Below, piece after piece: positions 60,001 to 63,000 of a DNA stretch of 64,000 nucleotides. A program made the position numbers. The first letter of the stretch is position 1. Each line of letters opens with the position of its first letter. Where the stretch lies: the NCBI RefSeq assembly GCF_016026235.1, contig NZ_CP065614.1; one strand, written 5' to 3'. The stretch comes from Escherichia coli. Lineage in GTDB: Bacteria; Pseudomonadota; Gammaproteobacteria; Enterobacterales; Enterobacteriaceae.

Positions 60001-63000
60001 GGCGGATGAAGTGCCAGAAGCCGCCTTCATATTCCGGCATCATTTTTTTCGCCAGCGCGTACACATACGCCTCGGCATACAGAAAATCGTTGCCAAACAG
60101 GTAAGGCAGAAAGGAGAGACGGTCGCACTCTTCAACATTCAGAGTGACAGGTTTCGCATATTGCATGATGTTTTCCTCCGTTGTTCACATATTCCGCGAC
60201 ACCGGGCGGTACCGTGCCTCCATAAAAGCCAGTTCAATTTGCCATCGCAGACGGTAACAATCAGCCACTTGCTCTGCTGAATATTCATCTTCCGATAATG
60301 ATGTTAGCAATAGCACATGGCCCGCTGCTTCCAGCGTTTCCGCCTGAACTACTCGTCCTTTTCGACGATTCTCGCTGAGCAGTCGGGTTTTACTGATTAA
60401 TGCTTTTTCGGGAGGAAGTGATACGGCAATGAGACGTGCAGGAAAGGGAGCTCCGGCTTTTTTATTACCTGAATTGCCTATCATTACAGTGGTTTCACCG
60501 TTCTTACCGCAATCCAGCCCGCGCAGAAAATCCATCATGTCAAAGCGCATTCCTTCTGCAGTTAACCAGCGCAATCCTCGCCAGTAAACCCGGACGATAT
60601 AATCAGCTTCTCCAAAAGCAAGTGAGCGGATACATTCGGGACGCGAACCGAATCCCCGGTCAGCAATTCGTATCTCGTCTGCCGTTTGCGCAAATCGATC
60701 CAGCCGTTCAGCGTCTCTGCTGTCGGTTAGCTCAAAATCAGTGAACTGACAGGTATGAGGATCATATCCCATATGTAGTCGCCATTCAGCGCTGCCGCCC
60801 CCGGGCGCGCTGATTGCTGTTCCATCGACAAGACGCAATCAAGGTGCGGCGGGAGTCGATGGCATGCGCGTAAGTGAACTGCCGGACTACCTGAGGCACC
60901 ACTGGCCAGAGCTGAAAGCGCAACTGCTGTCCGGCAGATACCGCCCATCCCCTGTGAGAAGAGTATCCATACTGAAGCCCGGCGGCGGCGAACGTCTGCT
61001 GGGCATCCAGATGGTGGTGGATCGCTTCATCCAGCAGGCTATGATGCAGGTATTGCAGGCACTGTGAGATAGCTCGTTCAGCGACAACAGCTACGGGTTC
61101 CGTCCCGGTCGTTCGGCCCACCAGGCAGTGATACAGGCCCAGGAATATATCGGGGCCGGGTATCACTGGGTGGTCGACCTCGATCTGGAGAAGTTCTTCG
61201 ACCGGATAAATCACGACGTGCTGATGAGCCGGATAGAGAAACGAGTATCGGATAAACGGGTGTTGTCACTTATCCGCAGGTTCCTGAATGCAGGGGTGAT
61301 GGACGCAGGTCTGGTAAGGCCGGTGACAGAAGGAACGCCGCAGGGCGGCGTGATCTCGCCCCTGCTCTCAAATCTGTTCCTGCACTATGCCTTTGATATG
61401 TGGATGCAACGTCAGTGTCCCGACGTTCCCTTCGAAAGGTACGCCGATGATGGTGTGCCACGAAGGCGCGCACCAGGGACGTGAGTCCCTGTGCAGCCAT
61501 GCTGCACAAGAGATGAGGGAAGGCCCCTCGGTGTCGGCGTGCAGGCGCAGGCACCAAACCACCCACTGCTGCTGCATTTAAGAGATGTGGTGGTGAGCGA
61601 GATGGGAAAAGGTCGGACGTGAGCCGATCAGGTATGGATCGAAGAGACGAACGAAAGTGAACCGCTGATGATGTGTCGAAAGCATATAGATGATGTCAAA
61701 ACCATGGTTATCCGGCTCCGGCGTTAACGTCACGGGAAGCAGTGCAGGCATATTTTTTCCGGAAGGCAGCAGGCCACCTTTCCGGTATTGATGGCGCCAG
61801 TTGAAGAGCAGGTTATCGTTGATTCCATTTTCACGGGCAATCTGCGCCACACAGGCTCCGGGCTGCAGTGACTGCTCCACTAAGGCGATTTTGAACTCAT
61901 AAGGGAAGTTGGGGCGCCGGGGACGCTTTTTTACCCCGGGGACTTCGGGCATAACGGTACTTTCAGTAAGTACGACAGGTACTGTGGAGGCACTCCCGTA
62001 AAGACGGGCGTCAAGTTCCCGCTCCGACATACCTGCGGGCAGAGGCCATGAAAGGCCAGCTTTGCGGAAGCGCACAAACATACTACAAACTGTTGATTTT
62101 GGTACGCCCAGGCGACGTCCGGCCACAACGAGGGGTAAATGTTCTTCAAAGTGAAGGCGTAAAGTGTGGATGGTGCAGAAGATGCCGATTTCCAGCCCCC
62201 GTTTTCGGGCTGCATACAGCAGATTCTCCACCGCCAGACGACACACGTCATTGCAGCCGTCAAGCTGCCGTGGTTCCGTGCCGTTCTAAATAGCTGCGCG
62301 GAATAGTAGATCCCTTTGAGGGAACTTAGCCCGGATTGTGCGATCTGATCAATCGCCAAATCAAAACAAATCACCAACCGGACTGAGCAATGCCGATCAT
62401 AGCACCAATTTCCCGTGACGAACGACGCCTGATGCAGAAAGCCATCCATAAAACACACGATAAAAATTATGCCCGCAGACTGACTGCCATGCTGATGCTG
62501 CACCGGGGCGACCGTGTCAGCGACGTTGCCAGAACGCTCTGCTGCGCCCGCTCCTCTGTTGGACGCTGGATTAACTGGTTCACGCAGTCGGGTGTTGAGG
62601 GACTGAAATCATTACCTGCCGGGCGTGCCCGTCGCTGGCCGTTTGAGCATATCTGCACACTGTTACGTGAGCTGGTAAAACATTCTCCCGGCGACTTTGG
62701 CTACCAGCGTTCACGCTGGAGTACAGAACTGCTGGCAATAAAAATCAATGAGATAACCGGTTGCCAGTTAAATGCCGGAACCGTTCGCCGCTGGTTGCCG
62801 TCTGCGAGGATTGTGTGGCGAAGGGCTGCGCCAACTCTGCGTATCCGTGACCCGCATAAAGATGAAAAGATGGCAGCAATCCATAAAGCACTGGACGAAT
62901 GCAGCGCAGAACATCAGGTCTTTTATGAAGATGAAGTGGATATCCATCTTCATCCCAAAATCGGTGCGGACTGGCAACTGCGCGGACAGCAAAAACGGGT

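Follow-up and report, generated by a model that had tools for sequence, protein, structure and literature searches.

Which group II introns, and how many of them, left the reverse transcriptase (RT) fragment that lies among insertion sequence (IS) remnants at positions 60185-62288 of the 64,000-nucleotide stretch of Escherichia coli contig NZ_CP065614.1 analysed here (the window, within which all positions are given)? The original prediction saw a second, degenerate group II intron RT at this locus. A group II RT remnant is indeed present, but its 870 bp consist of pieces of two further lineages and form a relic twintron, in which one intron is nested within another. The window is a pINV-type virulence plasmid of Shigella and enteroinvasive E. 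coli (EIEC). Related loci are referred to by L-numbers where needed, among them L001 (S. boydii), L003 (chromosome of E. coli 2012C-4221), L004 (pINV of EIEC RMDEC465) and L052 (Citrobacter braakii ATCC 51113).

A chimeric reverse transcriptase gene joined to an intron 5' end

The locus is built around the following features, in which EBS denotes an exon-binding site of the intron RNA:

60841-61349, plus strand: fragment of a lineage-A group II intron RT open reading frame (ORF), RT0-RT4 (GTPQGG), from identity to L003 and TIGR04416
61332-61452, plus strand: piece of a lineage-B (P.l.I2/RmInt1-like, endonuclease-less) RT ORF, RT4-RT5, VISPLLSNLFLHYAFDMWMQRQCPDVPFERYADD, from identity to L052
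61453-61708, plus strand: 5'-terminal 256 nt of a lineage-B intron (GTGTGCCACGAAGG...), from homologue alignment and L052
61515-61633, plus strand: Domain I substructure, Rfam group-II-D1D4-2 (RF01999), 119.4 bits, E 5.7e-25, model positions 1-118 of 118
61682-61686, plus strand: EBS2 position, GCATA (GCGTA in relatives), from an alignment of 25 relatives with their 5' exons

The anatomy of the region and the parentage of each piece were read directly from profile searches and DNA comparisons. The RT fragment comprises RT0-RT5 and stops at YADD, matching TIGR04416 at positions 15-88 (E 2.6e-22) and 91-217 (E 1.2e-56) of 353. Searches with Pfam and TIGR04416 gave no GIIM or HNH match, and the profile match ends at position 217, in agreement with the earlier description of RT0-RT5 without a maturase or HNH part. 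The same description called the RT frameshifted, which is incorrect because both pieces share one frame, interrupted by a single in-frame TGA (61065-61067) that is TGG in the relative L003.

The 5' part of the fragment (60841-61349) is 95.3% identical to the E. coli chromosomal intron L003, whose ribozyme parts match Rfam D1D4-3, D1D4-1 and D5. In the Citrobacter braakii intron L052, the RT gene has 96-98% identity to the 121 bp at 61332-61452, whose peptide type is also found in Mesorhizobium LtrA and in the intron-encoded protein (IEP) of RmInt1. In a three-way comparison 61290-61331 is 100% A-type, while 61351-61452 is 98% identical to L052 and 43% to L003. The crossover is marked by an 18-nt stretch between them (61332-61349), coding for GTPQGG, in which the two parents do not differ. 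The RT is a chimera of two lineages. Among E. coli complete genomes, 61377-61440 had no match apart from pINVs. We considered whether the 121-bp B-type piece is the previously listed E.c.I3-tr3 ('120/122 bp' fragment), and rejected this since the coordinates of the latter lie elsewhere. The closest lineage-A relative (L003 4325-6126) is itself split by IS100 and is located in a prophage region downstream of tRNA genes.

Directly after the B-type piece comes the 5' end of an intron. Homology to introns of Mesorhizobium, Salmonella, Ralstonia and a second pINV locus starts exactly at 61453, where the stub opens with GTGTGCCACGAAGG, a GUGYG-type intron 5' end, 1 nt after the YADD codons. With a slash marking the joint, the junction at 61440-61459 reads ...TACGCCGATGATG/GTGTGCC, and the 5' exon holds the intron-binding sites (IBS) IBS2 TACGC at 61440-61444 and IBS1 GATGATG at 61446-61452. 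The stub has 96.3% identity to the 5' end in L052, the intron whose RT gene also matches the RT piece (96.2%), and 87.5% identity to a nested intron of Photorhabdus thracensis (L019). It ends at an IS66 fragment, 2 nt short of EBS1. Because the 5' exon reads ...FERYADD G, the host gene is a lineage-B RT; and because an intron 5' end of the same type begins 1 nt after YADD and is cut off by the IS66 fragment, the structure (lineage-B RT ...FERYADD G followed by nt 1-256 of a lineage-B intron) is a truncated twintron. The host sequence that would resume after the inner intron is absent from the window, the stub being cut at nt 256 by IS66.

It had been suggested to look for a cognate ribozyme around 60840-61560. 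Across 60185-62288, D1D4-2 at 61515-61633 is the sole Rfam ribozyme match, and no D5 was detected at E<=1. A ribozyme is therefore present, but it was rejected as the cognate of the main RT fragment because it lies downstream of the RT and because the A-type relative carries D1D4-3 and D1D4-1.

These comparisons also bear on two simpler origins for the RT. Derivation from a retron, a defence-associated RT (DRT) or another non-intron RT is a negligible prospect. Models of retron St85, Drt2 and Drt3a do return weak secondary matches (E 1e-11 to 4e-09), but all retron and DRT models remain far below their cut-offs (retron_St85, 44 bits against 235), the group II model reaches E 1.2e-56 against 1.3e-11 for the best non-intron model (a retron), the 5' part shares 95% of its DNA sequence with an E. 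coli intron that has D1-D4 and D5 ribozyme parts on either side, and a complete intron contains the IEP gene to which the B-type piece is 96-98% identical. The group II assignment made at the outset is thus upheld. It is also very unlikely that the locus represents one additional degenerate intron with a frameshifted RT whose 3' half was lost to IS insertions. The contiguous RT0-RT5 frame matching TIGR04416, and the single pseudogene given by the Prokaryotic Genome Annotation Pipeline (PGAP), would fit such an intron; against it stand the lack of any frameshift, the change of parentage at 61332-61349 from 100% A-type to 98% B-type, and a D1D4-2 5' end beginning at 61453 when the A-type relative has D1D4-3 and D1D4-1.

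An apparently intact and different group II intron is located upstream at 56493-58792. It has Rfam D1D4-7 at 56493-56642, D5/D6 at 58716-58792, and an IEP of 557 aa (57046-58719) with RVT_N, RVT_1, GIIM and HNH domains. Its RT is only 36% identical to the RT fragment, so that the two copies are as clearly different as had been stated. The accompanying estimate that at least two intron lineages had visited the plasmid was right in that there was more than one, yet is an undercount: since the 870 bp hold two further lineages, the window contains at least three. In S. boydii (L001) the place matching the upstream intron has only a maturase-domain coding sequence annotated.

Recognition of RYADD codons and the intron's relatives

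A blind complementarity search gave competing candidates for EBS2, and the assignment was settled by alignment together with the geometry of RmInt1, in which IBS1 spans -1 to -7 and IBS2 spans -9 to -13 with -8 unpaired (PMC4075523). The lineage-B geometry is the same. From the 25 relatives aligned with their 5' exons, EBS1 is 5'-AGUCGUU in a hairpin loop at about nt 259-270, pairing 7/7 with GAYGAYU, and its general form is 5'-NGUCGUU opposite GAYGAYN at positions -7 to -1. EBS2, 5'-GCGUA at about nt 229-240, is opposite UAYGC at positions -13 to -9, with -8 unpaired. The synonymous third positions of the Tyr and Asp codons are faced by G, and the Ala wobble position (-8) is skipped. Complementarity was observed in full in L052 (the 96% relative) and in the L004 stub, both pairing 7/7 at EBS1 and 5/5 at EBS2. 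Across relatives, EBS1 covaries with the type of target:

EBS1 CUUCGUU with IBS1 GAYGARG: Mesorhizobium relatives
EBS1 GGUCAUU with IBS1 GAUGACC: L079
EBS1 UGUCGUU with IBS1 GACGAUA: L052

One genome per GTDB species was scanned with the first 18 nt of the stub as query, yielding at least 120 stretches. Intron 5' ends were verified with a profile of the first 256 nt, which gave 36 among the stretches listed and three more candidates that were too short. Among the matches listed, [YF][AT]D[DH] codons and one further nucleotide stand directly before 19 of the 36 verified 5' ends, and about 18 different host RT peptides occur at the RYADD sites. The hosts include Planctomycetota, Actinobacteria, Firmicutes, several proteobacterial classes, Photorhabdus and Citrobacter. 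In complete twintrons, Rfam places the outer ribozymes in D1D4-2, -3, -4, -5 and -6, while the inner intron is always D1D4-2 with its own D5/D6. Removal in silico of the inner intron of about 1.87 kb restored ...RYADD/F(V/I/K/L)... in frame at six loci (L090, L010, L044, L068, L089, L033). These observations suggest that the RYADD-homing lineage extends far beyond the four members cited in 2008.

The second pINV locus (L004 3608-4470, in EIEC RMDEC465 next to virA/icsA) holds a longer stub of about 455 nt, 95.5% identical to that in the window. It lies 1 nt after the YADD of a third, different RT (...AYCCYADD T/GTGTG) and keeps EBS1 AGTCGTT, which pairs 7/7 with GATGACT. This stub is probably the S.s.F1 of Leclercq & Cordaux. 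Searches of PLSDB located the stub sequence at three places per pINV.

Two metagenome-assembled genomes (MAGs) were of a different kind. A Rhodothermales MAG (L055-L062) contains a related intron in at least eight copies; these occupy various sites other than YADD, and their EBS1 and EBS2 have changed to match. In a Reyranella MAG (L024-L028) the same 18-mer is present in five contigs, each time following ...GACCGCGCGCGTCCCG, and each contig stops about 125 nt further on; a multi-copy element at which assembly fails could be responsible.

Because a G stands opposite each synonymous Y and the Ala wobble is skipped, one intron RNA could recognise RYADD broadly. It is possible, although we hold this as tentative, that a wobble-tolerant EBS lets one intron RNA read RYADD in RT genes from many phyla and from introns of at least five ribozyme types, and that RmInt1-type cousins use the GAYGA core for the catalytic ...IDE codons of IS630-family transposases, the intron family as a whole being specialised on acidic active-site motifs in the enzymes of other mobile elements. 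The RYADD target itself is published; our literature search found no description of the wobble logic or of the breadth of RYADD targeting.

The introns' own RT genes were looked at in the same way. In the RYADD-targeting inner introns L090, L010, L044, L068, L033 and L117, YADD is followed by A, G or V, the next codon thus starting with G. The EBS1 of these introns starts with A and so expects U at -1. Judged from these sequences, the one-base mismatch at -1 might give RYADD-targeting introns partial self-immunity. For the enterobacterial branch, with EBS1 UGUCGUU, pairing with the intron's own YADDV site may be possible, in keeping with the same-type nesting in the window.

RmInt1 and Mesorhizobium relatives (L130 at about 2530 in S. 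meliloti pSymB; L006, L099, L106, L012) have the IBS1 core GAUGA, as in RYADD-targeting introns. The RmInt1 site follows ...TTCATCGATGAGA/, read as codons F-I-D-E, and the Mesorhizobium relatives follow W-H-L-D-E codons; we suspect that both are catalytic-site codons of the host transposases.

Proposed history and alternatives

We propose that a lineage-B intron, P.l.I2/RmInt1-like and without an endonuclease domain, retrohomed into the RYADD active-site codons of a lineage-B RT gene and so would have created a twintron. The target would have been recognised through base pairing of EBS1 and EBS2 of the intron RNA, TAYGCNGAYGAYN being the expected target of a Citrobacter or P.l.I2-type intron. 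By analogy with RmInt1, insertion may have been primed at the replication fork. Homologous recombination within the shared 18-nt GTPQGG stretch (61332-61349) would have joined the twintron to the 5' part of a lineage-A RT. Later rearrangements, with IS421 on the left and IS66 on the right, presumably removed the outer ribozyme, the inner intron past nt 256 and the rest of the outer intron. The identity of the insertion site is observed; the order of events and the mechanism of recombination are what we infer. For the explanation as a whole (relic twintron, retrohoming into RYADD codons, A/B fusion and IS truncation) our estimate of the probability is about 85%.

Several points weigh against this history. 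The 3' end of the inner intron and the 3' exon are missing, which makes proof of frame restoration impossible in the window, so that it is seen only in relatives. EBS1 is deleted from the stub, and the EBS2 that is left, GCAUA, pairs only 4/5 with the local IBS2 UACGC. Gene conversion or RT template switching would account equally well for the A/B crossover, and recombination may have preceded or followed insertion. Lineage A could be of class C or of class D: its 82% similarity is to Di.ze.I1, a class C intron, yet the source table enters the fragment as class D.

Two alternatives concern the joints themselves. The junction between RT and intron 5' end might be an accident of illegitimate or IS-mediated recombination with no retrohoming, and the other joints of the region (60840/60841, 61708/61709 and 62164) do all link internal breakpoints of unrelated elements. 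Here, however, the joint is precise on both sides, with nt 1 of the intron coming 1 nt after YADD, the site recurs in 19 independent loci from many phyla among the matches listed as well as in the second pINV locus with a different host RT, and EBS1 and EBS2 of the lineage are complementary to the 5' exon, all of which leaves an accident highly improbable. As for the A/B chimera, an intron RT could have switched templates between two intron RNAs during cDNA synthesis, which would dispense with DNA recombination. The changeover inside an 18-nt identical stretch would suit this, and group II RTs are known to switch templates readily (PMC3683930). An identity of 18 bp also suffices for RecA-independent or short-homology recombination in an IS-rich plasmid, and we regard template switching as unlikely.

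Surrounding debris and the place of the relic among known introns

The remaining features of the region are as follows:

59741-60166, minus strand: antirestriction gene, the left neighbour of the debris
60185-60222, no strand assigned: F-type plasmid backbone, matching L001 as far as its position 2633 and adjoining the antirestriction gene
60223-60230, no strand assigned: 8-bp TAAAAGCC at a deletion joint, from comparison with related pINVs
60231-60840, minus strand: internal transposase fragment of IS421 (IS4 family), truncated at both ends, from Pfam DDE_Tnp_1 and NF033592
61709-62164, minus strand: IS66-family accessory tnpA fragment, truncated at both ends, from NF038385 and DNA identity
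62164-62257, minus strand: internal fragment (94 bp) of an IS91-family transposase, from DNA identity and PGAP
62289-63441, plus strand: intact IS630 of 1153 bp, from inverted repeats (IRs), junction sequences, Pfam and PGAP

The interval 59800-62400 is 99.7% identical to plasmids of S. boydii, S. sonnei and EIEC, and lpxM (msbB2), virK and capU lie downstream of it in the window. In the EIEC plasmid pCFSAN029787_01 the region is identical, and PGAP annotates an IS421 pseudogene, a group II RT/maturase pseudogene ('internal stop; missing C-terminus'), IS66 TnpA, an IS91 pseudogene and IS630. Positions 60231-62257 contain only truncated elements joined at internal breakpoints and are dead mobile-element debris. 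'IS graveyard' was thus an apt name, and the inventory of pieces first drawn up was essentially right, with several labels in need of correction. To judge from the sequence, nothing in the region should now be able to splice, move or yield a functional RT.

On the left, the sequence flanking 60185-60222 is common to many F-like plasmids with the antirestriction gene, and 60185-60222 itself supplies the final 12 or so codons and the stop of a spurious 217-aa ORF. Related pINVs carry two copies of TAAAAGCC 680 bp apart. Compared with all its close pINV relatives, the window is without those 680 bp, which comprise about 330 bp of backbone and about 350 bp of the IS421 end. Because no PLSDB record spans the joint, the deletion appears private to this plasmid. 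The IS421 piece matches DDE_Tnp_1 (E 4.8e-18) and NF033592 positions 111-296 of 332, is 98-99% identical to IS421 copies, and is labelled by PGAP 'IS4-like element IS421 family transposase, missing N-terminus'. It had been taken for an IS4-family C-terminal fragment. The family holds; the piece is nevertheless internal, as the deletion includes the IS421 end and the tail of the ORF is backbone.

On the right, the piece previously read as an IS2-like OrfA is instead an IS66 accessory TnpA (NF038385 E 3.4e-67, above cut-off, versus IS2 TnpA E 6e-09), with aa 27-181 matching profile positions 7-156 of 190 and 91.7-95% DNA identity to E. coli IS66 tnpA genes over query 1-456. Scores for IS2/IS3 OrfA (PRK09413, 36.5 bits against a cut-off of 229; IS3, 30.8 against 160) reflect only the shared HTH_Tnp_1 fold. 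The piece is a fragment because tnpB, tnpC and the IRs are absent. The 222-aa ORF at 61578-62246 is a read-through artefact over IS91, IS66 and the antisense strand of the intron stub, and an IS21 IstA-like identity for its residues 1-109 was ruled out, the entire stretch being IS66 TnpA. PGAP annotates an 'intact' IS66 accessory TnpA of 182 aa (WP_432206261.1), equivalent to window 61578-62126 on the minus strand and found at L005 4740-5288. Since IS66 homology stops at 61709, its final 44 or so codons look like antisense of the intron stub and hence an annotation artefact. Beyond it, the internal IS91 fragment was identified correctly from the start (92.6% identity to annotated IS91 transposase genes; a PGAP pseudogene without either terminus), as was the intact IS630 at which the debris ends. 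IS630 starts right after 62288 and has a full-length 343-aa transposase (62390-63421) with Pfam DDE_3 and helix-turn-helix domains, terminal IRs and a TA duplication inside a CTAG target.

Homing to YADD is not a new phenomenon, as it was explicitly described in 2008: the RYADD codons serve as IBS1 and IBS2 in a target common to B.th.I3, M.a.I5, UA.I3 and P.l.I2, and these introns form twintrons (Tourasse & Kolsto 2008, PMC2504315, citing Dai & Zimmerly 2003). These 'B-like' introns have no endonuclease domain, and replication-fork priming was proposed for them (PMC2504315). The relic shares the RYADD target and the twintron outcome with the P.l.I2 group, and the full-length relatives of its stub lack an endonuclease domain. 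It differs in keeping only the first 256 nt, in having a lineage-B host RT, so that -1 is the G of a Val codon and not T, in the fusion of that host RT to a lineage-A RT, and in its closest full-length copy found, which is in Citrobacter braakii (96%) and not in Photorhabdus. The IEP of L052 is 55% identical to that of RmInt1, has no endonuclease domain and ends in a C-terminal LF(A/V)HW tail as in RmInt1. A neighbour-joining tree of the inner IEPs was crude, had no reference class set and cannot tell whether RYADD targeting had a single origin. RmInt1 (Sinorhizobium meliloti, IIB3 / class D) shares the Rfam D1D4-2 region and the IBS1 core GAUGA, but targets the IS630-family element ISRm2011-2 (...CATCGATGAGA/) instead of RT genes and has EBS1 5' nucleotides and an EBS2 unlike those of lineage B. 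In other nested introns, such as the c-Ha.de.I1 copies of Hamiltonella defensa (PMC3522654) and the twintrons of Thermosynechococcus elongatus (Mohr et al. 2010, PMC2882425), the arrangement has also been noted; the T. elongatus inner introns differ in having no ORFs and in lying between the first two ATGs of the IEP ORF, not in a catalytic motif.

Both main fragments had been catalogued on plasmid pSS_046 by Leclercq & Cordaux (2012, PMC3522654 Tables S2, S3). S.d.F1 (545 bp, 82% to Di.ze.I1; NC_007385 162758-163302) corresponds to window 60841-61385 and S.s.F3 (256 bp; NC_007385 162435-162690), 87% identical to P.l.I2 of Photorhabdus luminescens (Table S3), to window 61453-61708; S.s.F1 and S.s.F2 are further P.l.I2-like pieces on the same plasmid (PMC3522654). 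The sequences are the same as ours, yet they were listed as two unrelated fragments, with their adjacency at RYADD, the 121-bp lineage-B piece and the crossover undescribed. New here are the linking of S.d.F1 and S.s.F3 as one relic twintron in the Shigella/EIEC record, the 121-bp lineage-B RT piece with its 18-nt crossover, the 96% identical full-length relative in Citrobacter, and the wobble-tolerant pairing pattern with evidence that the lineage is widespread. Two annotations, the single RT pseudogene of PGAP and the 'intact' 182-aa IS66 TnpA, are corrected.

The observation holds up but is unremarkable: the relic is a truncated twintron from a known RYADD-homing lineage that recombination fused to the RT of a third intron, and, being non-functional debris, it is of no consequence for the plasmid. 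If the pairing scheme is true, the nesting of a lineage-B intron in a lineage-B RT on this pINV would mean that the enterobacterial branch is also able to parasitise its own kind. The lineage exemplifies a selfish element for which the unmutable active-site codons of another are a perpetual landing site.

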